Assembly (NCBI GenBank): GCA_018304295.1
Contig: JAGVWK010000008.1
Span: 1-50,513, forward strand
Source of the DNA: Candidatus Micrarchaeota archaeon
GTDB lineage: Archaea; Micrarchaeota; Micrarchaeia; Anstonellales; Anstonellaceae
DNA length: 50,513 nucleotides
Direction of reading: 5' to 3'
How positions within the stretch are numbered: the stretch's first letter is position 1; every line of letters begins with the position of its first letter. The position numbers were made by a program, and so were the translations under genes. Shown one piece after another: positions 18,398-43,225 of this stretch. A model generated the notes under the pieces. It was not told where the DNA came from. It saw only the letters and a list, made by a program, of their open reading frames with translations, and searched no databases.

Positions 18398-19447
18398 TCA
18401 CAACTCCTTGTAGCATCCAAGGAAGCGGAACATGCCGCTTTCCTTTTGCGTTTTTTCCAGCGCATCTTTCACATTCTTGTCCTCGTCGCTTCCTGCAAAG
18501 TCAATTATGAACCCATACTCCCCAGTCCCATTTTTCATCGGAAGGGATAGAATGCGCGTCAAATTTATTTTTGCGTCCGCAAGTATCTTCAATATCCCAA
18601 AGAGCGCGCCTGCCTTGTGTGCGGTTGTGAAGGCAATCGTGCACTTGTCCCCTTTTTCCTTTGCCTTTTCCCGCGACACAACAAGGAACCTCGTTGTGTT
18701 TGATGCATGGTCCTCAATGTTCTCCTTTATTATCTCCAGATTGTAAAGCCGCGCACACAGCGCGCTTGCTATTGCTGCCGAGCCCATCGGTTTTTGTGAA
18801 GCAACCATTTTCGCAGCCCCTGCGGTGTCGTAAAAGGGCTTTGGCTCAAGCTTGTTGCGCGCAATAAAGCCAGCGCATTGCGCAAGCGCCTGCGGGTGCG
18901 AATACACGCTTCGTATCTCCCGATAATCCATGCCGGAAGGCGCAAGAAGGCAGTGGTGCACGGGCACTTTCACTTCCCCTACAATGTGCAGCCCCGACTC
19001 CATAAGAAGTTCGTTCACTCCTGCAACCGGGCCTGCCAAGGAATTTTCAACCGGCACAACGCCCAAATCCAGCTCCCCGCTTTTCACAGCCTCAAACACC
19101 TGTGAAAATTCAAGGCAGGGAACTGGCACCGCGTTTTTAAGCGCGCCTGCGGCAATCTCGCTGTACGCCCCATGCTCCCCCTGAAATCCCACAAGCACAA
19201 GTTCTTTTTTCTGAAGCTCTTTTCCTTCCGCAATGAGCTCGGACACGATTTTCCTCCCAAACTCCGCACTCACGAGCCCGTGCGCCTTTTTCCCAATTGC
19301 CCCAAGCACCTGCTGCTCCCGCTTTCCATCCGTAACTTCGCCCTTAAACCTTTTTGTGCGAAGCGAAAGCTCCATCCTCCTGTCCATGAGCCTCAAAAGC
19401 TCAACGTCCAGCCCGTCAATTTTTTTCCTCACTTCGTCCAAGTCCAT
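18398..19447 (-). CDS. pheA: Chorismate mutase/prephenate dehydratase (P-protein)
   Basis: AroQ N-terminus, FQGEHGAYSE, PVENS, SHPQALAQC, NTTRF, ACT domain. Confidence 0.95.
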   Translation of the reverse strand: MDLDEVRKKIDGLDVELLRLMDRRMELSLRTKRFKGEVTDGKREQQVLGAIGKKAHGLVSAEFGRKIVSELIAEGKELQKKELVLVGFQGEHGAYSEIAAGALKNAVPVPCLEFSQVFEAVKSGELDLGVVPVENSLAGPVAGVNELLMESGLHIVGEVKVPVHHCLLAPSGMDYREIRSVYSHPQALAQCAGFIARNKLEPKPFYDTAGAAKMVASQKPMGSAAIASALCARLYNLEIIKENIEDHASNTTRFLVVSREKAKEKGDKCTIAFTTAHKAGALFGILKILADAKINLTRILSLPMKNGTGEYGFIIDFAGSDEDKNVKDALEKTQKESGMFRFLGCYKEL

Positions 19448-19451
19448 GCGC

Positions 19452-20780
19452 TCACCCTAGAATTTCTTTTGCAGGCTCGTAAGAGCCAATGTGCACCAGC
19501 CCCTGCCATCCTGCAATTTTTCCAACTCCCTCTTTCCTGTCAAACTCAACAACAAACTTTTCCCCATCCCTTTTCACTTTATATTCAGTCCTGCCCTGCA
19601 GCAACTCCCCAAGCCTCTCACGCACGTCATCTTTGAGCGCAGACAAAAGGTTTGCCATATGGCGCTCTGAGAATACTCTTGTTATTTCTGCTCCTGCATT
19701 CCTAATGCCATTAAGAAATAACGCAAGATCTTTCATGTCTGGCAGCCCAATTGAAACAATGTGCCTGCTGCCGCCCATCTCAGGCATTTTTGCCTCAAAA
19801 ATCAAGAAGCGTGTCCTGTTTGTCGGGTCATTTTCCAGATTACTTCTTACAATCTTAAGCCCGTAAAGCTGTGCGCACACGTTTCTTGAAATCGCGCCCG
19901 TTTCCCGCAATAATTCAGATGCAACCTTCAATGATGCACCCGCTGTATCATTGTGCTCAACAGCCTCCCATCCATTTTCAGCTATTGCATTGCTGCATTG
20001 CTTGAGCGCTTGTGGATGCGATAAAACGATTTTTATGCCACTAAAATCAGTTTCAGGCAGAGCAAGCAGGCAGTGGTGAATTGGCAAAATTATCTCTCCG
20101 CTCACTCCAAGCGAAGTATTGGCAAGTAGCAAATTTGCATTTTCAACAGCCCCTCCAATTGAGTTCTCAATCGGCACTTCCCCAAAATCAAAAATACCCT
20201 CTCCAACCCCCATGAGCACCTCTTGGAAGCTGCCGCAGGAAATGGGGATTGCCTTCTTATTCTGCGTTTCTGCAGCCAGCTCTCCATGTGCGCCCGGCAT
20301 CCCCTGATAAGCAGAAAGCATTGGATTTTCATTCAGCAGCTTCACTGTCTCGTCTATTATCCTTCTAAAAAAACTTGAGGCAACATTTGGACTCCATGCA
20401 CCTCTGGATGCATCCGTAACTCTTCCTAGCACTTCAATTTCACTGAACGACCACGGGTGCGCGGAAGCCTCTGCCTTTAGGCAGCGGAGGAGCGCACCCG
20501 CACAGGGAATGTTGTGGCTTCCGCCTGAAGCCCTTCCGCAATCTTCGCGGAACCTGCAAATCGGCGAACCGATTTGCGGTCCACTTTTCGCGGAAAGCGA
20601 AAAGTCGGAGCCACGGGCTTCAGCCCGTGGTCGTTCACGCTTAAAGTCGCTCACACCAAGCCCGCCTATTCTCTTGAGTCTGCCCACAACTAGCCCAAGC
20701 TCCATGCGTCTGCGCAGCTGGTGCACTATCAACAGGTCATTCGCATCAATTTTTCCCCTGATTTCTGCCAAGTTCGTCAT
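19452..20780 (-). CDS. Second, divergent chorismate mutase/prephenate dehydratase carrying a 65-aa in-frame insertion
   Basis: AroQ-like N-terminus, YQGMPGAHGE, PIENS, SHPQALKQC, NRTRF; degenerate ACT domain. Confidence 0.85.
   Translation of the reverse strand: MTNLAEIRGKIDANDLLIVHQLRRRMELGLVVGRLKRIGGLGVSDFKRERPRAEARGSDFSLSAKSGPQIGSPICRFREDCGRASGGSHNIPCAGALLRCLKAEASAHPWSFSEIEVLGRVTDASRGAWSPNVASSFFRRIIDETVKLLNENPMLSAYQGMPGAHGELAAETQNKKAIPISCGSFQEVLMGVGEGIFDFGEVPIENSIGGAVENANLLLANTSLGVSGEIILPIHHCLLALPETDFSGIKIVLSHPQALKQCSNAIAENGWEAVEHNDTAGASLKVASELLRETGAISRNVCAQLYGLKIVRSNLENDPTNRTRFLIFEAKMPEMGGSRHIVSIGLPDMKDLALFLNGIRNAGAEITRVFSERHMANLLSALKDDVRERLGELLQGRTEYKVKRDGEKFVVEFDRKEGVGKIAGWQGLVHIGSYEPAKEILG
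20444..20638. mobile_element. 195-nt non-autonomous palindromic element with IS200/IS605-like ends
   Basis: 14-bp terminal inverted repeat TGAACGACCACGGG/CCCGTGGTCGTTCA; subterminal hairpin CCACGGGC-TTCA-GCCCGTGG ending in TTCAC; inserted 3' of TTCAC; removal restores KREIEVL. Confidence 0.8.
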
Positions 20781-20781
20781 G

Positions 20782-21809
20782 CTAGCCCTCTTTCCTGCCT
20801 GCAAGCACAATGTCCGCAATGCAAAATGCCGCAACGTTTTCCACAACAGGCACCGCCCGTATGCAAATGCACGGGTCGTGCCTCCCCTCTATTTTCAGTT
20901 TTGCGCTTTCCATTTTTTCCAAGTCCACTGTGTTTTGCTCGCGGAAAACACTTGATGTAGGCTTGAATGCAACGCGGAACACAATCGGCATCCCTGTTGA
21001 AAGCCCGCCCAATATCCCGCCCGCATTATTTGTTTTTGTTGCAATTTTTCCATCCACAATTACAAACTCGTCATTGTGCGCGCTCCCCTTCATGCGCGCA
21101 GCCTCAAATCCCGCCCCAAACTCCACTCCCTTTGCGGCAGGTATCGCAAATACCGCCTGCGCGATAATGCTTTCAATGCTTGCGAACATCGGCTCTCCAA
21201 TCCCAGCAGGCAGCCCAACAACTTTGCATTCCACTATCCCTCCCACAGAATCCTGCTCCCTAATTGCATTTTTCACTTCCTCCTCCATCTGCGCCGCAGT
21301 TTTTGCATCCGGGCACCTAACCGCATTCGCGTAAGTTCCTTTCACTATTTCCTCTTCACTTGGCTCACCTTGCAGCCTCACGTTTCCAAGCGCGCGCATG
21401 AACGCCAGTGTGCGCACCCCTTTTTTCTCCAGCACTTTCTTTGCAACCGCGCCCGCCATCACAAATGCGGCAGTCATCCTGCCGGAAAAAAACCCTCCGC
21501 CGCTTTTCACTTGGCCGTATTTCACTATCGCGGGGTAATCTGCATGCCCCGGTCGGGGCATCCTTGAGAATTTTGCGTAATGCCCCGGGCGGGTGTCCTT
21601 GTTTTTCACAAGCATGCGCATTTTCCCCCCAGTAGTTTTTCCATTTTCAATGCCGCTTTCAATAACAACGGTGTCCTCCTCCTTTCTCTGGCTTGTGAGC
21701 GCGCTCTGCCCGGGCTTTCGCCCCCAACGTGGGGCCCATGGCTGCTGCCAAACACTTCCAATTTGAAGTTTTTCCCAAATGAAAATGCATTTCCCATTTT
21801 TTCCATCAT
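20782..21809 (-). pseudogene. aroC: Chorismate synthase with internal deletion + frameshift near 21721-21725 (may be an assembly artefact)
   Basis: FGSSHGPHVG in one frame joins RKPGQSALTSQRKEED...PRPGHAD...GRHDPCI in another; roughly 25 conserved codons are missing. Confidence 0.85.
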
Positions 21810-23050
21810 TCCACCCTCAATTTTTCCAAATCCCCAAAGAAATTCGGGTATGATTTTGCAACGCACTGCGCATCCTGTATTTGCACATCCGTGTTGCTTG
21901 CAAGCGCCGCAACCGCGCATGCCATTGCAATGCGGTGGTCCCCATGCGACTGCACGCTGCCGCCTTTTAGCTCTCCTCCCTCCACGCGCATCTCATCCCC
22001 CTGCACGCCAACCTTTGCACCCATTGCAGTGAACTCTTTCACAAGCGCAGCAGCCCTGTCGCTCTCTTTGTTTTTTAGCCGCCCGGCTCCGCGCAACACG
22101 CTTCTCCCCTTGCAGCTGCACGCAAGCGCAACAAGGGGCGGGAACAAATCCGGGCAATCCGTTGCATCAAATTCAAGCGCCCTAAGGCTTGCTTTTGCAA
22201 CCGTTATCGCATTTTCCTCCTGCAGAACTGTCGCCCCGGCATCCTTGAGCGCATCCACTATCACCCTGTCAGCCTGAAGCGATTTTTGCGCAAGCCCCTC
22301 CACCTTCACTTCGCCCGCTATCGCGCCTGCAACAAGCATGAATGAAGCGCCCGACCAGTCTCCCTCAATTTCCACGCTTGCAGGCTTGTATTGCTGCCCG
22401 CCTTTTATTGCGAACCTCTCCATCGTTGCATCCGCCCCAACCTCAACCCCAAACTCCTGCAGCATCTGCAACGTCATGCGCACGTACGGCCTGCTTTTGA
22501 GGCTTTCAACGTGCAAAAGCGAATTTTTTTCGCACAAAGGAAGCGCCATCAAAAGCCCGCTTAAAAGCTGGGAGCTTTTTGAGCCGTCCATGCGCACCTC
22601 CCCCCCTTTCATTTTCCCGCTTATTTTTACAGGCGCATGCCCGTTTTGAGTTTCGCACCGCGCCCCAAGCGCAACAATCGGCGCTTCAATTCCCCCAAGC
22701 TGCCTCTCCCCAAGCGTTCCTTTTCCAACAAGCGTGAATTCCCCATCAAGCGCAGCTGAAATTGCGCAAAACATTCTCATGCACAAGCCGGACTCATCGC
22801 AGTCCAGAGTTCCAGAAGAAGTCGCATTGCCTCCCTTTATCGCAACCTCTCTTTCCAGCATTTCAACCTGTGCCCCAAGGCAGCGTGCAATCCCAAGCGC
22901 AGCAAGAGCGTCCTCACAAAACGAGGGGTTCCTTATAATGCTCTTTCCCTTTGCAAGCGCCGCCGCTGCAACTGCCCTTTGCATCATGCTCTTTGAAGAA
23001 GGCGCGCGCATTTTACCGCACACGTTTCCAGAAGGTATTTTTTCCATCAT
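21806..23050 (-). CDS. aroA: EPSP synthase
   Basis: PSSKS, SSQLLSGLL, EGDWSGA, KESDR, DHRIAM, KSYP. Confidence 0.96.
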   Translation of the reverse strand: MMEKIPSGNVCGKMRAPSSKSMMQRAVAAAALAKGKSIIRNPSFCEDALAALGIARCLGAQVEMLEREVAIKGGNATSSGTLDCDESGLCMRMFCAISAALDGEFTLVGKGTLGERQLGGIEAPIVALGARCETQNGHAPVKISGKMKGGEVRMDGSKSSQLLSGLLMALPLCEKNSLLHVESLKSRPYVRMTLQMLQEFGVEVGADATMERFAIKGGQQYKPASVEIEGDWSGASFMLVAGAIAGEVKVEGLAQKSLQADRVIVDALKDAGATVLQEENAITVAKASLRALEFDATDCPDLFPPLVALACSCKGRSVLRGAGRLKNKESDRAAALVKEFTAMGAKVGVQGDEMRVEGGELKGGSVQSHGDHRIAMACAVAALASNTDVQIQDAQCVAKSYPNFFGDLEKLRVE

Positions 23051-24363
23051 GGCTTTCCAACCCCTATTTCCATTGCTATCATGCTCGCAACTTCCTGCGC
23101 GGTTTTGCCCCCAGTATTCACCATTATGTGGCAGGCTCGCGCGTAAATTTGAAGCCTTGCTTCCAATATCCTGTGCGCAACCTCCTCTTTGTCCTGCCTG
23201 TTTACCAGCGGCCTGCTTGCATCGCCCTTTGTCCTTTCCATTGCCTCTTTTGCGCTTGCAAAAAGCCACACCACAAAGCATTCCTTTTGCAGCAGTTGCG
23301 CATTTTCCTCCCTAAGGACAATGCCTCCCCCGCACGAAATAACGCAATTTTCTTTTTGCACTGCCTCTTTGAGCGCTTCAGCTTCCATCTCCCTGAAACT
23401 AGCCTCGCCCGCCTGCTCAAATATTTCCGGAATGCTTTTCCCTGCGCTTTGCGCAATCATCCCATCCGTTTCCACAAATTCAAGCCCGCACAGCTTTGCC
23501 AAAATCTTTCCAACAGTGCTCTTGCCGCTTCCCATGAACCCTATGAGCGCAATCCTACGCCTGCTTTTCGCATCAGGCCGGTTTTCAAGCACCGCCTTTC
23601 TCATTGCTTCAAGGGGCGCATCTTTCCCTGTGAATTTCCCAAACGCATCAATGCCTTGGAACAGCACCCAGCTTGTCGCATCAACTATTTTGCACCCCGC
23701 CTCTTTTGCATCCGCAACAAGCGCGCTTTGCGCAGAGTAGTTCGCATCCAGCACCACCATGCCCTGCTTAAGCATCCTTTTTGGCACCACCCTTTCATGC
23801 GCGCTTATGCATGAAACAAGAATGGCCGCGCCTTCAAGCGCGTTTTCCAAATCCCCTTCATTTACAGAGCACGCTTCGCACCCAAATATGCGCGCAGCCT
23901 CCTTTGCTTTTTCAAGCGTCCTGTTTGCGCACACTACTTTTGCGCCTTGTTTTGTGAGCGCAAGGATTGCGGCTTTTGCAGCCCCCCCTGCCCCAAGCAC
24001 AACCGCCTTTTTGCCCCTTATCCCTGCACCCGCGTCTATGAGCGCACCTGCAACACCTTGCGGGTCCGTATTGTACCCACTGCTTTTCTTGTTTTCAAAA
24101 ATCAAGGTGTTGCACGCACGCAGCAGCTTCACTTCTTCGTTTTTTTCATCCACCTTGCTTGCAATCCCCTGCTTTAGCGGCGCAGTGATGCTCATTCCTG
24201 CAATTCCCATCTCCTTTGCTGCGGAAAAAACATCGTCCGCATCCTGTGCAAGCATGCGAAAGTATATCGCATCAATCCCCATTGCATCAAACGCGGCCTG
24301 ATGCATCTGCGGGCTAATGCTGTGCGCTATCGGCTTTCCTGCAACTGCAAACAATTTCGTCAT
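23047..24363 (-). CDS. aroE: Shikimate dehydrogenase-shikimate kinase fusion (AroE-AroK)
   Basis: HSISPQMH, ITAPLK, NTD, GAGGAA followed by GFMGSGKST, SCGGG, RPL. Confidence 0.93.
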   Translation of the reverse strand: MTKLFAVAGKPIAHSISPQMHQAAFDAMGIDAIYFRMLAQDADDVFSAAKEMGIAGMSITAPLKQGIASKVDEKNEEVKLLRACNTLIFENKKSSGYNTDPQGVAGALIDAGAGIRGKKAVVLGAGGAAKAAILALTKQGAKVVCANRTLEKAKEAARIFGCEACSVNEGDLENALEGAAILVSCISAHERVVPKRMLKQGMVVLDANYSAQSALVADAKEAGCKIVDATSWVLFQGIDAFGKFTGKDAPLEAMRKAVLENRPDAKSRRRIALIGFMGSGKSTVGKILAKLCGLEFVETDGMIAQSAGKSIPEIFEQAGEASFREMEAEALKEAVQKENCVISCGGGIVLREENAQLLQKECFVVWLFASAKEAMERTKGDASRPLVNRQDKEEVAHRILEARLQIYARACHIMVNTGGKTAQEVASMIAMEIGVGKP

Positions 24364-26131: not shown

Positions 26132-26962
26132 TTAATCCCCATTTTCCAGCCCATTCAGCCCGCTCATGCATTTGTGCAATCCCCTAACATTTTTTGCAAG
26201 CTTCTCAAACTGCGCGTGCGTGAGCTGCTGCTCCTTGTCGCTAAGCGCCTCAGTGGGATTGCGGTGCACCTCAACGATTATCCCGTGCGAGCCGGCCGCA
26301 ACAGCCGCCATGCTCATGGGAGGTATCAGGCTTGGCTTTCCGGTTGCATGGCTTGGATCAACGATTATTGGCAAATGCGTGAGTTCCTTTATCACCGGAA
26401 CCGCGCTCAAATCCAGCGTGTTGCGCGTGTAGGTTTCAAAAGTGCGTATGCCCCTCTCGCACAATATCACGTCCGGATTTCCCTCGTTTAGCACGTATTC
26501 CGCGCTTGAAAGCCACTCCTCAATTGTGGAGTACATGCCCCGCTTAAGAAGAACGGGCTTGCCCGCTTTCCCGACCTCCTTTAGAAGCGCAAAATTCTGC
26601 ATGTTGCGCGTGCCCACCTGCAAAACGTCCGCGTATTCATTCACCCACGATACATCCTTTGTGTCCGTAACTTCTGTAATTATCGGCAGGCCCGTTTCCT
26701 CGCGCGCCTTCTCAAGTATTTTCAGTCCCCTCAGCCCAAGCCCCTGAAAAGCGTATGGGGAAGTGCGCGGCTTGAACGCACCCCCGCGCAGCATGTCAGC
26801 CCCTGCCTTTTTTACCGCGTGCGCCGTTTCCAGCGTCTGCTCCTCGGACTCCACGCTGCACGGCCCCGCCATTATTGTGAATCCCTGCCCCACCCTCACG
26901 TCCCCCACGCGCACAATCGTCCTTGCGTTGCCGTTCAATGCGGCAAGCTTTATGTTTTTCAT
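26132..26962 (-). CDS. aroF: Type I-beta DAHP synthase without regulatory domain (alternative start 27001)
   Basis: [36 protein letters not shown]; GGGTGG SD. Confidence 0.95.
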
Positions 26963-27044
26963 GTTTCCACCCGTTTTTTTTATCTTTCCAATATTTTCCA
27001 TCCAAATGTTATCACTAACAGTAGTTGCACCGGAAAAACCACAC

Positions 27045-27081
27045 AAAAAAGGATTCAGAAAATTTCAGCGCGATTTTCCCG
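27045..27081 (-). terminator. Candidate attenuator terminator: weak stem followed by U6 tract
   Basis: Minus strand CGGGAAAAT-cgcgctgaa-ATTTTCTG-aatcc-TTTTTT just after the leader stop. Confidence 0.45.
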
Positions 27082-27085
27082 ATGG

Positions 27086-27160
27086 CTAATAGCTAAAGCT
27101 AAAGAAATAGCCGAATGTGCGGAACACTCCGCTCCATGCATTTTCTTTAGCTATTGCCAT
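27086..27160 (-). CDS. Putative aro-operon leader peptide MAIAKENAWSGVFRTFGYFFSFSY
   Basis: 24 codons + TAG; 5 Phe, 2 Tyr and 1 Trp within the last 16 residues; directly upstream of DAHP synthase; GTGAT SD-like motif. Confidence 0.8.
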   Translation of the reverse strand: MAIAKENAWSGVFRTFGYFFSFSY

Positions 27161-27197
27161 CCAAAATCACGTTTGTGTAGTTTTTGCGGTGCATGTT

Positions 27198-27205
27198 GTT
27201 TATAA
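27198..27205 (-). promoter_or_regulatory. TATA-like box for the leader/aro transcript
   Basis: TTATAAAC about 40 nt upstream of the leader ATG, downstream of the trpA stop. Confidence 0.55.
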
Positions 27206-27222
27206 TATTATCCCAGCCTGCC

Positions 27223-27997: not shown

Positions 27998-30127
27998 TCA
28001 TATTTTTTCGCCTTCCATTTGCGCAACATGCTGCACGTCCTTGTCCCCCCTGCCTGACAAATTCACAATCACAACCGGCATTTTTCCTGCACCCTTCGTA
28101 GTACTCCCCACGCCACCCAATCCGCTTGCGCCAAGCGCAGTGCGTGCCCCACCATCCAATCCACCTTCTCCAAGCGCAGCCTCTGCAGCAAGCGCACCTT
28201 CCCTTAATTCTTTTGCAAGCTTGGGCAAATATGCGATTGCATGCGCGCTCTCAAGCGCTGGTATTATTCCCTCCATTCTTGCAAGCAAATGAAACGCCTC
28301 AAGCGCTTCCTTATCCTCAACGCAAACATATTGCGCCCTTTTTAGCGCATAAAGGTGCGCATGCTGGGGCCCTATTGCAGGATAATCAAGGCCAGCGGAT
28401 ACAGAGTGCGTTTCCCTTATCTGCCCATCGGCATTCTCAAGCACATAAGTGAGCGTCCCGTGCAGCACTCCCAATTTTGCATCCCCGCTTATGCGCGCCG
28501 CATGTTTTCCGGTTTGCACCCCCTCCCCGGCAGCTTCCACTCCGACCATTTTCACGCCCTCATCCTGTAAAAACGCGCCAAAAAGCCCTATCGCATTGCT
28601 GCCTCCCCCGACGCACGCAAGCAGGCAGTCCGGCAGCCTTCCCTCATCCGTAAGTATCTGCTCGCGAGCCTCCTTCCCTATCACGGATTGGAAATGCGCA
28701 ACAATGGACGGGTAGGGATGCGGCCCAAGCGCAGAGCCAAGTATGTAATGCGTATCCGCAAAATTCGTTGCATAGTCCCTTAGCGCCTCATTCACCGCAT
28801 CCTTTAGCGTGCGGCTTCCTGCCTCCACTATGCGCACATTCGCGCCCAGCATCTCCATCCTATAAACATTAAGCTTCTGCCTTTTCGCATCCTCGCTTCC
28901 CATGTAAACGTCGCATTGGAGCCCAAGCAGCGCGGCAGCAGTCGCAGTCGCAACCCCGTGCTGCCCTGCCCCTGTTTCCGCAATCACCCGTTTCTTTCCC
29001 ATGTATTTTGCAAGAAGCGCCTGCCCTATCGCATTGTTTATCTTGTGCGCGCCGGTGTGCAGCAAATCCTCGCGCTTAAGGTAAATCCTCATTCCTAATT
29101 TTTCGCTTAAATTCCCTGCAAAATAAAGCGGCGTTGGCCTGCCGGCATATTTTGACAAGTAGTGCGAAAGCTGCTTGTTGAACTTTCCGTCTTTTTTTGC
29201 ATCCTCAAACGCTTTTTCCAGCTCTTGCAGCACAGGCACAAGAAGCTCGGAAACATAGGTGCCTCCGAACTTCCCGAACCTTCCGGAACTTGATGCCATG
29301 CATCCGATTTTTTCCCCCGGCGCCCCGGCATCTTTGCTGCCACCTACTGCCTCTGTTTTTGCCGCAGTCGCCCCTTTGAGCTCAAGGATTTTCTTTTTCA
29401 AATCCTGCGCAGTCCATATTGCAGTGCCCACAAGTATCCCGCTTGCCCCAGTTTCCCTAAGAAATTGCACGTCCTCTTTGCCCCTCACGCCGCTTTCGCT
29501 TACAAGCGGCTTTGCAATGTTTGGGAATTTTTCCATTATTTTCTGCGTGCGCCGCAAATCCACTTTCAGGGTTTGCAAGTCCCTGTTGTTTATGCCCACA
29601 ATGTCCGCGTCCGTTTGCAGCGCGCGCTTCATTTCCCCCTCATCATAGCATTCAAGGAGCACCTCAAGCCCAAGTGAGTGCGCACGTGCAATGAATTTGC
29701 GCACGTCAAGCTTTTCCCTCTCCAGCACGCGCATCACAAGAAGCATGCAGTCCGCGCCGCTTGCCGCGGCCGCCTGCACCTGCCTCTCATCAAGCACAAA
29801 ATCCTTGAAAAGGACCGGCAAGCCGGTTTTTTTTGCAATTGCAACGTTCCCCAAGTCCCCCTTGAATATTCTCGGCTCAACAACAACTGAAATCGCATCC
29901 GCGCCGCACTCCAAAAATTCCCCGGCAGCCTGTCCAACGTCAATCCCGCGCATCTCATATTCCCCTGCAGGGGATGCGTGCTTTATTTCGCAAATAAGGC
30001 AGAATTTTCCGCCTGTTAATTTTTCCTTCAACGAACTCCGCTTCACATTTTCCGCTTTTGCCCCTTCGTAGTAGCCCGCCCGCACATTCTCTTTTGCCTG
30101 CGCAATGAATTTGTCAAGAATGTCCAT
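27998..30127 (-). CDS. trpB: Indole-3-glycerol phosphate synthase fused to tryptophan synthase beta (TrpC-TrpB)
   Basis: EIKHASP, FKDF, GINNRDL, ESG, then [36 protein letters not shown] in one frame. Confidence 0.93.
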
Positions 30128-31193
30128 TGTAACCACGCAACTGCTCCAGCTTTTGCATTGCTTTTCCCTCATCAATTGATTTTGCCGCAAGCTCCACTCC
30201 CTGTTTTAAGCTTGCAGCAATCCCGCTTGCATAAATTGCGCCAGCCGCATTGAGCAGCACAACGTCCCGCGCAGCGCGTTCCATTCGGGCTTGCCCCTCC
30301 GCCTGCCCAACAGCCGCTTTTTCCGCATTTGCACCCTCTTTCCTGCCGCCTTTCCCTTCAAGCACGCCAAGAATGATTTTCGCGCTCTCTTGCTTTCCGC
30401 TTGCCCTTATCTGTGCAAGCGAGCTTCTTTGAATCCCGAAATCTTCTGGAACAATTTCGTTTTTTTCAATGCCTTTTCCGCTTGCTTCACAAATTACCGT
30501 GGGCGCGCTTGCTGAAATCTCGTCCATATCCGAGCACACGACAAGCGCCTTTTGCGTCCCAAGCTTTTGCAGCGCAAGCGCAATTTTTTCAACAAGCGCC
30601 TTTTCGTACACCCCGACAACCTGCCTTTTTGCGCCCGCAGGGTTTGTGAGGGGCCCAAGCACATTAAAAACAGTCTTGAAGCCCAACTCCCTTCTCACCT
30701 GCGCAACCGCTTTCATTGCAGGGTGATAAAGGGGCGCAAAAAGGAAAGTTATGCCAATCTCTCCAAGCTGTGCCTGCGCCTGTTTTGCATCAACGCTTAT
30801 TTTCACCCCAAGCTCCTCAAGCACGTCCGCGCTTCCGCTTTTGCTTGAGGCAGCCTTATTGCCGTGCTTTGCAACCCTTGCCCCCACCCCTGCCGCAACT
30901 ATTGCGGCGGCAGTTGAAATATTGAAAGTGCCGCTCCCATCCCCGCCAGTGCCCGCCGTATCCACCAAATTCTCCAAGCTTGTTTCCACCCTCACCGCCC
31001 TGCCCCTCATCACATTTGCAAACGCAACAATCTCCTCAACCGTTTCCCCCTTTGCGGCAAGCAGCGCAAGAAACGCGGCAATCTGCGAAGGGTTAACCTG
31101 CCCGTCCATTATCGCATTGAGCGCGTCCGCTGCCTCATGCCCGGATAAATCCCTCGCCTCTATGAGTTTTTTCAAAATTCCGTCAAATTCCAT
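30114..31193 (-). CDS. trpD: Anthranilate phosphoribosyltransferase
   Basis: [32 protein letters not shown]. Confidence 0.96.
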
Positions 31194-33475: not shown

Positions 33476-33570
33476 CCCTTTCCTTGCTTTCCATTTTAGC
33501 ACCCCGCGTAATCTTTAGTGCTATTCTTGCATGCCTGTATATATTTAAACCTTTATGCATAAAAGTATGC

Positions 33571-39809: not shown

Positions 39810-39948
39810 CGTTTTGCCTTGCATCTCGCCTTCTTTTTTTGCCTCGTAAAAGACCAAAACGCTTTTAATGCTTTTATGCCCAATGCCTTTTGGCGATCAG
39901 GCATAACGGCAGCAAGGGCGTAAAATAAGTCCCAGAGCAGGGTTGGCA

Positions 39949-42900
39949 ATGATATTCCTATCCAGAATACGGATGCGCGGCTTCAAGTCTTTCAAGAACG
40001 CAGACATCTCCCTCTCGCGCGGCTTTATTTGCCTTGTAGGCCCAAACGGCTCGGGCAAGTCCAACGTAACAGACGCAATACGCTTTGCGCTGGGGGAAAG
40101 CGCGCTGCGCTCTTTGCGCGCAAAAAAAGTCTCAGAGCTCATCAATACCTCTTCAAAGCATGCGGAAGTTACCATTTACATAGACGGCGATCGCAAGCTT
40201 GAGGTAAAGCGCGCCATAAAGGACGACGGCAAAAGCGGCAAATGCATTTACCGCATAAACTCAAAGCGCGCAACGCGCGCAAGCGTTATGGAGGCACTGC
40301 GCCCGCTCGGCCTTGAGGTGGGCTCCCACAACATAATAGCGCAGGGGCAGGTGCAGCGCATAATAGAGCTCAATGCAAAAGAGCGGCGCGCCGTGATAGA
40401 TTCCGTTGCAGGCATAAGCGAGTTTGAGGAGAAAAAGAAAGAGGCAATGAACGAGCTTGAGAAGGTTGAGCGCAAGATTTCAGACTCCGGCATAATACTT
40501 TCCGAGCGCGTCGCATATTTGGGCGAGCTTGAGCATGAGCGAGATGCGGCGCTTGCGCACAACGACGCAACTGAAAAACGCAAAAGCGCGCGCTACACAA
40601 TAGTGAAGCGCGAGCACGAGCACCAAGGCAGGCAGCACTACGAAATTGCGCAAAAATCCATAAGCGCAAAGGCGGAGCTTGAAAAAGCCACCCTTGAGCT
40701 TTCTTCCTTGGACTTGCAGATTTCCTCCCTTGAGGCGCGCCGCGTGGAACTGTCCGCAAAAGTGAATTCCCAAAGCGCGCGCGAGGGCACGCTCAAGCAA
40801 ATAGAGGAGCTTCGCGTTTCCATTTCCGCCTCCACTGCCTCGCTTGCTGAAAGGAAAAAAGACCTTGCGCGCATTGTGGCGCGCCTAGGCGAACTCTCCT
40901 CAAAAAGGGCTGGGCAGAAAAACAAATCCCTTGCGCTCAGCGCTGAAATTGCAAAGCTTCGCAAGGAGCTTTCCTCCCTTGACGCGAAAATAGGCAAGAT
41001 GGAGCAGGAGCAAGAGGCAGGCACGGGCACAGAAATCTCCCAGATACGCACCTCCCTTGACTCGCTTGTTTCGCAGTTGCAGCAGCTTCGCGAGCAGCGC
41101 GCCTCCCTTGCCTCCGACATTTCAAAAAGCAAGGAGATGCACTCCATGCGCCTCTCTGAAATACAGTCCATTTCCTCAACCCTTCCAAAGCTTTCGGATT
41201 CGCGCCTTGAGGGCGAAAGGGCGAACTTGGGCGCGGAAATAGATTCAATTGCAAAGGAAATAGACAAAATTTTCTCGCAGGAAAAAGACCTTAACAAAAA
41301 CATCCCACTGCTTGATCGGCGCATGCTTGAGCTTAAGGAAAAGCATGCAATAATGCGCGCAAGCGCATCCGCATCGGCAACCAATCCCGCAATAGCCTCG
41401 GTGCTCTCAATGGGGCAGCACATAAAGGGGATATATGGAACAGTCGCCGACCTGATAAAATTTGAGCCCGAATATGCAAAAGCAATAGAGGCGGCGGCAG
41501 GAAGCCGCCTCACCTACGTGGTCGTTGAGAACATTGACGTTGCAACCGCGGCAATAGACAGGCTACGTTTTCTCCGATACGCTTCTTGTAAAGGACGTTG
41601 CAGCCGCAAAGAAAGTCGGAATAGGCAAGGCGCGCATGGCAACAATTGAGGGCGAGCTTCTTGAGCGCTCAGGCATAATAACCGGCGGAAGCGCAAAAAG
41701 CAGCATACTTTCGCGCACCGCGCTGCAGACCCTTGAGAGGGAAATAGAAAGCCTGAAAAAGGAGCGCGAGGGCGCATATAGCGAGCTTTACTCAATACGC
41801 GAAACCATCTCACGCAAAAGGCGCGAAAAGGCAGAGGCTGAGATAAAGGCAAAGGGAATTGAGCTTGAGCTTGGCAGCATGGAGGCGGCGCGCAAGTCAA
41901 TTGAGTCCCTCAAGAAAAAAATCTCCCTTTTGCAAAAAGGCGCGCAGGAATTGCAGTCTCAAATTTTCCAGAAGGAAAAAAGCCTCGTTTCCCTTAATGG
42001 CAGCATTGACAAGATGCAGCAGGAGCGCGAGTCCCTCTCCTCCTCAATTGCAAGCGCGCAGGAGCTTGAAAAAGAGCAGGAGAGTGCGCAAGCATTGCAG
42101 CTTCGCTCATTGCTAAGCGACCACTCTGAGCTTGATTCTTCCATTAAGGCAAAAGAAAGCGAACTTTCACTTATGCGCGAGCAGGATGGCGAGCTTGAAA
42201 CCGAGCGCAAAAGCCTTTTTGCAGAGCAGGCAGAAGGCAAAAAACAGGCAGAGGCGCTTTCAGCAGGCATTGAAAAAGATTCGTCCCTACTTTCCCAAAA
42301 GGAAGAGGAGCTTTCCCACCTTAGCGCCTCCGCAAAGAAATTCTTTGCGCAGCTAAAAGCGCTTGAAGAGGAACTTTCAGGCATTTCCTCGCAGCGTGGA
42401 AAGTCGCAGTTTGCCTTTGATTCCCTTAACAAGCAGCTCTCAGAGCTTGAGGCAAAAAAAGCGATAATAGAAAGCAGGCTTGCGGACTACGCGGTGGAGC
42501 TTGAGAATTTCGGGCCAAATTTCCCTTCCTTGCTTGACGTGCCAAAAGCGCAGCTTGAAGAGCTCATAAAGGAGTGCGACGCGAAAATAACCTCCCTTGG
42601 CGCAGTGAACCTGAAAGCACCCGAGCTTTACGAGGAAAAGAAAAAGGACATTGACGGGGTGCGCTCAAAGCTTTCCCTTTTGGCGGACGAAAAAACAGCG
42701 GTGCTTCGCATGATGGACGAGATAGACGCAAAGAAGCGCGACATTTTCCTCTCCACCTTCAACGGAATTGCAGCGAATTTCAAGAAGCTCTTTAACCTCA
42801 TTTTCAAGGGCGAGGGAACGCTGCTTCTTGAGCAGCCCTCGGACCCGTTCAATTCCGGGCTGCAGATAAAGGTGCGCGACGAGCGCCACGAGCGCTACAT

Positions 42901-43225
42901 AGATTCCATGTCAGGGGGCGAAAAATCCCTTCTTGCGCTTCTTTTCATATTCGCAATACAGATGCACAAGGCATCCCCCTTCTACATCCTTGATGAGGCG
43001 GACGCTGCGCTTGACAAAGAGAATTCCCGCAAGCTTGCAGGGCTTTTGCGCCAGCTTTGCGCAAATACGCAGTTCATAGTGGTAAGTCACAACGATGCAA
43101 TACTCTCCTCTTCCGACATAGCACTTGGCGTGATGAAGACGGACGACGGCTCAAAAATAGTGGGGATACAGCTCACTACTGCCGCAAACATAGCAAAAGT
43201 GCGCAAAGTGCCGCAAGATGAATAG
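39949..43225 (+). pseudogene. smc: Chromosome segregation protein SMC, split by hinge deletion + frameshift near 41563-41566 (may be an assembly artefact)
   Basis: GFKSF, GPNGSGKSN, hinge GIYGTV, MSGGEK, LDEADAALD; IDRL is joined out of frame to YVFSDTLLV. Confidence 0.88.

Follow-up and report, generated by a model that had tools for sequence, protein, structure and literature searches.

The stretch of DNA considered here, which we call the window, is a complete 50.5-kb contig (50,513 nucleotides, nt) from a 1.05-Mb, 84% complete assembly of a Candidatus Micrarchaeota archaeon. Domain and profile assignment of its open reading frames (ORFs) reveals an aromatic supraoperon on the minus strand, with a trp half that ends in trpA and an aro half that begins with the gene for DAHP synthase. 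The gap between these two genes holds a leader element, formed by a short ORF rich in Phe, Tyr and Trp codons and by RNA segments that can pair in two mutually exclusive ways, and it is this element that we discuss. Judging from its conserved features, we think it quite likely to be a ribosome-sensing leader-peptide switch. The parts of the locus are the following, in the direction of transcription.

Minus strand, trp half of the supraoperon: trpE, trpG, trpD, a fusion of IGPS and PALP domains, and trpA
28029-27223, minus strand: trpA, directly upstream of the leader gap
Gap of 260 nt between trpA and the DAHP synthase gene: holds the leader element
27198-27208, minus strand: TATA-like A/T-rich box at -44 from the leader ATG, identical to TTTAWATA at 6 of 8 positions
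27172-27193, minus strand: outer arm A, a 22-nt inverted repeat with 27047-27026 (E3), 91% complementary
27144-27172, minus strand: region 1, comprising E1, the start codon and codons 2-6; 5' arm of helix 1:2
27171-27163, minus strand: E1, the Shine-Dalgarno-like box CGUGAUUUU, part of region 1
27086-27160, minus strand: leader ORF, 24 codons plus TAG; ATG at 27160-27158, TAG at 27088-27086
27119-27132, minus strand: inner hairpin GCGGA/UCCGC (27132-27128 with 27123-27119), within the leader ORF
27068-27099, minus strand: region 2, comprising the last codons F-S-Y, the stop and E2; the arm common to helix 1:2 (as 3' arm) and helix 2:3 (as 5' arm)
27080-27069, minus strand: E2, the A-rich box GGGAAAAUCGCG, after the stop codon
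27045-27062, minus strand: E2-E3 loop, with T4 at 27062-27059 and T6 at 27050-27045
27027-27044, minus strand: E3, the U-rich box GUGUGGUUUUUCCGGUGC; 3' arm of helix 2:3, with a T5 tract at 27038-27034
27008-27018, minus strand: conserved motif UUAGUGAUAAC, downstream of E3, in the last alignment columns
26995-27006, minus strand: second copy of the UUUGGAUGG start box, direct repeat D1, with an ATG at 27001-26999 in the DAHP synthase frame
26132-26962, minus strand: DAHP synthase, type I-beta (PF00793, E 1.9e-81), first gene of the aro cluster
Minus strand, aro half after DAHP synthase: aroB, aroD, an aroE-aroK fusion, aroA, aroC
Minus strand, end of the supraoperon: two chorismate mutase-prephenate dehydratase genes, then an aminotransferase gene

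An earlier note on this DNA had described the minus-strand ORF, the helix joining its start and stop regions, the inner hairpin, a TATA-like box upstream and a position ahead of the first shikimate-pathway gene, and all of these are indeed found at the locus. The U6 tract that it singled out at 27050-27045 is also present, although as one of two or three U-tracts. What we add to that description is the competition of E3 for E2, the outer 22-nt inverted repeat and the conservation of the element in relatives.

The leader ORF of the window contains five Phe, two Tyr and one Trp codon, all eight of them among the last 16 codons, with the single Trp codon first and the Phe/Tyr cluster after it. 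Among the copies found in relatives the ORF varies between 20 and 40 codons, and the distance from the aligned start codon to a conserved anchor near the end is a multiple of three in 31 of 32 distinct copies. A start codon is present in nearly all of them, as is an in-frame stop located at E2 or shortly after it. In about half of the copies the stop codon overlaps the beginning of E2, whereas in eight it lies 13–17 nt further downstream, so that E2 itself falls inside the ORF. Phe, Tyr and Trp account for 31% of the residues of the leader peptides vs 8.7% in the long ORFs of the genome. Both Phe and Tyr occur in every one of 31 leader copies and a Trp codon in 24 of them, and our reading of the table places the Trp codon at codons 8–13, just ahead of the Phe/Tyr cluster, in 17 of these 24. 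The ORF would thus act like a translated leader.

Outside the paired codons the order of residues is not conserved, and what is kept is only composition, frame and pairing. Moreover, the conservation of the peptide is in part really conservation of the RNA. The first codons mirror the F-S-Y codons near the end of the leader, in which Ser is always AGC, and the residue after Tyr covaries with the synonymous third base of codon 2 (alignment pair 37-159). Such features are also what one would expect if the element were a structured non-coding RNA, for instance a riboswitch for an aromatic compound or a tRNA sensor, with an ORF that is a by-product of helix constraints. We regard this explanation as very improbable, because the frame is maintained despite the changes in length, the start and the in-frame stop near E2 are retained, aromatic codons occupy the variable unpaired middle of the ORF too, with both Phe codons in use (TTC 97 times and TTT 43 times in the leaders), and there is no match in Rfam, T-box included. 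A known RNA family, such as the Trp, Phe, His, Thr and Leu leaders of Rfam, was likewise discarded as a candidate, as no Rfam match reaches the gathering score in the window and a search with E up to 10 gives only unrelated families at chance level.

The pairing of the leader RNA can be followed in the window and across the copies. In the window, the start-stop helix joins 27161-27145 with 27098-27081 by 17 bp with one bulged A, and the duplex of the two arms of helix 1:2 has an energy of -34.5 kcal/mol (z -6.4 vs shuffled arms). For helix 2:3 the duplex energy is -27.0 kcal/mol (z -4.8). For the intergenic RNA as a whole (27222-26962) the fold energy is -78.6 kcal/mol (z -4.66), a value that none of 200 shuffles equals. 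The arms shift register among copies and, therefore, helix 1:2 was studied with a covariance model and helix 2:3 on a plain alignment of shorter length. Scored on the model-fitted alignment of 32 copies, a kind of alignment that leans toward structure, helix 1:2 has a covariation of 0.253 vs 0.168 ± 0.010 (reached by 0 of 500 shuffles; slid controls 0.066–0.132), 58 cells changed on both sides vs 29 ± 4.5, and one pair that appears in all four Watson-Crick types (GC 9, AU 8, CG 7, UA 4). Seven of the 32 copies, with long or badly aligned loops, were excluded from the plain MAFFT alignment, and on the 25 that it contains helix 2:3 has 85.1% of paired cells vs 44–55% after sliding, and a covariation of 0.297 vs 0.211 ± 0.017, again reached by 0 of 500 shuffles.

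Since E2 and the stop region belong to both helices, the two are mutually exclusive, and each of them shows covariation. E3 looks like E1 plus the start codon, as expected if E1 and E3 have E2 as common pairing partner; one copy combines a GTG start with a CAC in region 2 and a second GTG in E3. The GC part of the E2:E3 helix is 4–5 bp long, and the U-run lies inside the helix. It is this E2:E3 helix that constitutes the alternative to the start-stop helix, and not the weak stem mentioned in the earlier note, which is not a functional alternative. As for the inner GCGGA/UCCGC hairpin, a hairpin resembling it is present in one relative.

The earlier note had proposed beforehand to look in relatives for an aromatic-rich ORF at the same place with covarying stems, and such ORFs are found. 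A first DNA search of 40 relatives gave a 73%-identical stretch in another family, which precedes DAHP synthase and encodes a 20-codon aromatic ORF, and similar ORFs lie upstream of DAHP synthase in most Micrarchaeota records of a set of 80 loci. A covariance model built from 15 copies, R1, was run on 151 genomes from the same Micrarchaeota order and matches 30 of them, always with a single copy in the sense orientation; 47 of these 151 genomes have a DAHP synthase gene. The match is directly upstream of this gene in 28 of the 30 genomes, at 13–124 nt, and the remaining two precede an EPSP synthase gene (L139, 1501-1669) and an aspartokinase-like gene (L138, 293-446). The L138 copy sits on a 1.9-kb contig. 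In a phylum-wide sample R1 matches 8 of 151 genomes, every one within this order, and there are no matches outside the order among the genomes searched.

We also read 20 upstream stretches, which belong to the 19 enzyme-bearing genomes without an R1 match and to a second gene copy in one genome (G020). Ten of them have a clear aromatic-rich small ORF, five of the same type and five of other types, three are ambiguous and one is cut by the contig end; the other six have no leader ORF, and two of these genes, including the second copy in G020, directly follow trpA. A scan shows that aromatic-rich small ORFs are common by chance in these genomes, so the ORFs of other types count less, except for two leaders from another Micrarchaeota family, L157 (~275-450) and L158 (~285-470). 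In these, 10 of 12 residues are aromatic and there are alternative helices of their own: a second segment can pair either with the last Phe/Trp codons or with a third segment that is rich in pyrimidines. The two leaders would lead to the same switch logic despite their different build. No Rfam match was found in them. In one further Micrarchaeota genome (L052, ~2080-2480, same place as L149), an array of ~20-nt palindromes replaces the leader ORF.

The abundance of such ORFs by chance could also suggest that the element is just a gene for a small functional protein, or else a mobile element or an inverted repeat without meaning, which lies at this place by coincidence. We find this hardly credible given that the element is single-copy in the genome, that it conserves composition, frame and pairing and not residue order, that its fold energy is far from that of shuffled sequences (the z of -4.66 given above), and that its position is, in this argument, always ahead of a shikimate-pathway gene, with the aspartokinase-like neighbour in one R1 match. 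A mobile element, such as a miniature inverted-repeat transposable element, was specifically rejected: the sole other match in the assembly is the reverse strand of the element itself, and the relatives have one copy per genome.

The host of the element is an archaeon, as the earlier note had supposed. The record titles of the closest public DAHP synthase loci are mostly Candidatus Micrarchaeota, genes for A-type ATPase subunits, for an archaeal-type ProRS and for a protein of the 'archaeal ATPase' family are on the contig, and the genome encodes TBP and an FttA/aCPSF1 of 632 aa with a KH domain. The signals around the leader ORF agree with this. The TATA-like box of the window is 38–45 nt from the leader ATG, and of the 29 copies from relatives that could be assessed, 12 have an octamer with at least 7 of 8 TATA matches at -52 to -57. 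The leader strand of the window has neither a sigma-70-like promoter nor a hairpin-plus-U terminator, and the leader contains no fourth segment and no GC hairpin terminator.

The U-tracts, on the other hand, are gathered in one segment. Of 31 copies, 25 have five or more consecutive T residues somewhere after E2 and before E3 ends, vs only 3 of 30 for the spacer between E3 and the gene start. Genome-wide, T5+ runs cover ~1% of the bases before stop codons vs ~3% after them, a modest contrast obtained with a crude set of ORFs. According to passages of a 2026 review of termination (PMC13675443), archaeal U-tracts terminate transcription with no need of a hairpin, and aCPSF1 recognises the U-tracts of terminators through its KH domains. 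Two of the things that a conditional oligo-U/FttA terminator calls for are present at this locus: U-tracts of at least four residues (T4, T6 and T5) and an FttA gene in the genome.

Thus, our interpretation builds on the frame and aromatic content of the ORF, the covarying helices, the clustering of U-tracts, the fixed position in the pathway and the genes for FttA and TBP. From these we infer translation of the leader, stalling, which helix means ON, and termination as the output, in the following way. The TATA promoter would give an RNA whose first ~25 bases hold E1 and the beginning of the leader ORF. With aromatic tRNAs charged and abundant, the ribosome would reach the stop codon and cover E2, and then E3 and the adjoining U-tracts would emerge single-stranded and transcription would end at them, either by the archaeal oligo-U mechanism or by means of FttA/aCPSF1, a reader of U-rich RNA; after release of the ribosome, helix 1:2 would keep E2 occupied. 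When an aromatic tRNA is scarce, a ribosome stalled at least six codons before the stop would break helix 1:2 and leave E2 free to pair with E3, which would bury the E3 U-tract and allow RNA polymerase to continue into the DAHP synthase gene. The E2:E3 helix is read as ON and single-stranded E3 as OFF because starvation must switch a biosynthetic operon on. The assignment fits archaeal termination because, as far as the available text of PMC13675443 goes, U-tracts and not hairpins are required and the KH domains of aCPSF1 bind U-tracts. The hairpin would, therefore, probably mask the U-tract rather than cause termination. In our opinion, a leader-peptide switch that governs read-through into the aro operon by archaeal U-tract masking is the best explanation overall and a reasonably probable one; the precise wiring, with helix 2:3 as ON and exposed U-tracts as OFF, we propose tentatively, at a little under even chances.

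The ribosome was modelled in silico as a 30-nt unpaired block in order to see how its position affects the choice between the helices. When the A site holds the stop codon, the E2:E3 pairing does not exceed 0.03 in any of the 31 copies, whereas a stall at least six codons upstream of the stop gives values that are mostly 0.6–1.0. Several results weigh against the masking explanation and should be considered together. A stall at the last one to three codons masks E2 like a terminating ribosome. At ribosome-free equilibrium E2 prefers E3 over E1 in 18 of 31 copies (probability at least 0.5), so that helix 1:2 can win only kinetically or after ribosome release, and untranslated RNA would be ON, unlike in classical attenuators; for the same reason, we rejected equilibrium switching as a sufficient account. 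A T5 run is missing in 6 of 31 copies, and the longest U-tract is often in the loop of helix 2:3 and so would be exposed in the ON state. In the L139 copy the aromatic codons are out of frame with the ATG. Concerning the RNA structure, besides the lean of the model-fitted alignment mentioned above, that alignment has the outer E1:E2 portion of helix 1:2 in poor register, with no more than 54% paired, and from whole leaders in a plain MAFFT alignment RNAalifold obtains neither helix, only a 3-bp stem. Finally, all copies come from uncultured metagenome-assembled genomes.

There is a serious rival explanation, in which the switch is wired as in bacteria: helix 1:2 would be the terminator hairpin with the U-tract after E2, a stall on Phe/Tyr codons would block it and give read-through, and E3 would merely capture E2 later. 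Its default without translation is OFF, as in classical attenuators, and when the nascent ribosome-free RNA is folded up to each U-tract, the 3'-most helix has its partner 9–25 nt upstream of the ATG. The gap between this helix and the first U-tract is 0–6 nt in about half of the copies, and archaeal polymerase can use bacterial-type hairpin/U terminators according to the available parts of PMC13675443. However, the gap is 8–24 nt in at least nine copies, such as L031 (14), L121 (16), L073 (19) and L045 (24), too far for a hairpin-driven release; a helix 1:2 that abuts the first U-tract as a canonical terminator was thus discarded as a general description, being true in only about half of the copies. 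Moreover, a bacterial-type wiring leaves the strong conservation and covariation of E3 unexplained, and a ribosome that pauses on the stop would keep helix 1:2 from forming too, which would give read-through in replete cells unless the polymerase waits. For these reasons we consider it unlikely, though it has to be taken into account.

The action of the leader might also be post-transcriptional, if stalling alters the initiation of DAHP synthase translation or the stability or processing of the mRNA, with no premature termination. E1 and E3 resemble ribosome-binding sites and E2 is complementary to them, and the third segment of the distant leader L158 has no U-run, a point that counts in favour of this option and against U-tract masking. 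There is also a preprint on a mycobacterial poly-Cys upstream ORF (uORF) that reports in its abstract short leaderless ORFs that attenuate operon genes (10.1101/834739). Nevertheless, E3 has no special complementarity to the ribosome-binding region of DAHP synthase (mean z 0.08 in 30 copies), so that E3 as an anti-Shine-Dalgarno element for this gene is unsupported. In addition, the distance from E3 to the gene start varies between 31 and 197 nt, and U-tracts are concentrated in the E2-E3 segment. We judge a post-transcriptional action to be improbable.

Returning to the masking model, outer arm A deserves a comment, since it turns the whole leader of the window into one long rod in the minimum-energy fold. 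The TATA-like box is close to the ATG, and so the arm is probably absent from RNA made from the leader promoter. It probably lies upstream of the local transcription start and would, in that case, be present only in RNA that reads through from trpA; given the masking model, our guess is that such read-through RNA would be constitutively ON. Downstream of the element, the near-copy of UUUGGAUGG is 39 nt ahead of the annotated start of DAHP synthase, and its ATG at 27001-26999 may be an alternative start of this gene.

Attenuation by leader peptides is the textbook example of what the coupling of transcription with translation makes possible, and trpL and pheL are ribosome-mediated transcription attenuators of enterobacterial amino-acid operons (see also PMC3082878). 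Like trpL and pheL, the element is located in the 5' leader of a biosynthetic operon and has a short leader ORF, here predicted to be translated, with clustered codons for the end products of the pathway; it also has mutually exclusive helices, one segment of which adjoins the end of the leader, and the position of the ribosome would decide between them. Unlike them, it belongs to an archaeal host with a TATA-box promoter, lacks a fourth segment and a GC-rich hairpin-plus-U terminator, mixes Phe, Tyr and Trp codons in a single leader, pairs its regulatory codons backwards with the leader's own start region, and has the U-tract inside one of the competing helices. The element is, therefore, a leader-peptide attenuator in logic and fails the hairpin-plus-U criterion in anatomy, so that the classical attenuator suggested by the earlier note holds for the first aspect and not for the second.

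A second bacterial parallel is the tnaC leader of Escherichia coli, with Rho-dependent attenuation that is induced by free Trp through nascent-peptide arrest. The stalling of TnaC is the subject of PMC8429421. By analogy, termination would be factor-dependent in both cases, and the ribosome at the end of a short ORF would decide whether the factor has access to its RNA site next to the stop codon. In the archaeal element, the presumed factor would be FttA/aCPSF1 and not Rho, the proposed signal is a shortage of charged tRNA, and what hides the site would be an RNA helix. T5–T7 tracts as the proposed stop signal, in a genome that encodes FttA, also bring the element close to archaeal oligo-U and aCPSF1/FttA termination as presented in the available parts of PMC13675443 and PMC2253867, with the difference that the terminators treated there are 3'-end terminators. 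In the parts available, PMC13675443 does not describe a conditional, ribosome-controlled use of this termination in 5' leaders, and the string 'attenuat' does not occur in it.

Bacteria also offer a comparison at the level of the gene itself. Bacteroidota, Chlorobiaceae, Syntrophorhabdaceae, Spirochaetaceae and Desulfobacteraceae have the same DAHP synthase with 60–75% identity, and the closest of these bacterial genes are likewise preceded by a short ORF rich in F, Y and W. Unlike the archaeal element, the bacterial leaders have TTGACA-type promoters and strong GC hairpins followed by T7–T8, and neither their peptides nor their RNA can be aligned with the archaeal family. A quick tree of 56 DAHP synthases from the 80 loci (L031-L085, rows >200 aa, plus the window) leaves its backbone without resolution, so that no donor is named here. 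The bacterial aromatic leaders are at loci L049, L053, L055, L056, L057, L059, L061, L064, L077, L078, L079 and L083, ~80–300 nt upstream of DAHP synthase, and the seven that were scanned have no Rfam match.

To our knowledge, leader-peptide attenuation has been characterised in bacteria only. In agreement with what the earlier note had stated, our searches of the full-text literature found no characterised archaeal leader-peptide attenuator, including the available text of the 2026 termination review, an archaeal ribosome-profiling paper and a paper on a uORF tool. The last of these does say in passing, in the part available and with no example, that uORFs regulate by attenuation in archaea. 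Thus, we think that there is a good chance that this is the first archaeal family of leader-peptide attenuators. A much stronger statement can be composed, although as a whole it is rather doubtful: that these are the first archaeal ribosome-mediated leader-peptide attenuators, with inverted logic and integration of three amino acids, and that they were built repeatedly across Micrarchaeota families. In such a device the regulated E2:E3 hairpin would be an anti-terminator and a ribosome that finishes the leader would expose the U-tract; a stall at the Trp codon would mask the 5' arm of the start-stop helix, and a stall at the Phe/Tyr cluster its 3' arm; and the f3-type leaders (L157 and L158) would represent a separate construction of the device in another family.

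A conserved and covarying family of ~30 or more members makes the question directly testable: is the coupling between ribosome and RNA polymerase tight enough in archaea for an attenuator, and what replaces the hairpin terminator where U-tracts or FttA suffice for termination? The element also suggests that some genome-reduced DPANN archaea keep a regulated pathway for aromatic amino acids and do not rely solely on a host. Moreover, it might provide archaeal genetics with a compact natural part that responds to the supply of aromatic amino acids.

At the head of the supraoperon, the short 5' region of trpE (33494-33560, minus strand) has a TATA-like box of its own and contains no leader ORF, so that the trp half is without a Trp leader. 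Crude scans of this genome for small ORFs with runs of amino acids gave nothing convincing as further leader peptides, and they miss the aro leader too, owing to strict thresholds and to the spurious long ORFs that overlie it, so that absence is not shown by them. Within the operon, IGPS and PALP domains are on one ORF (27998-30190, minus strand), a possible trpC-trpB fusion, and a separate trpF was not seen in the window. The ORF at 23047-24363 (minus strand) combines a shikimate dehydrogenase with an AroK-type shikimate kinase, and of the adjacent chorismate mutase-prephenate dehydratase paralogues at 18398-20846 (minus strand) only one has an ACT domain. Elsewhere in the window, on the plus strand, an SMC-like protein is encoded by two overlapping ORFs, the first (39943-41649) for the N-terminal head and hinge and the second (41636-43225) for the C-terminal head, which may be due to a frameshift, a split gene or an assembly error.

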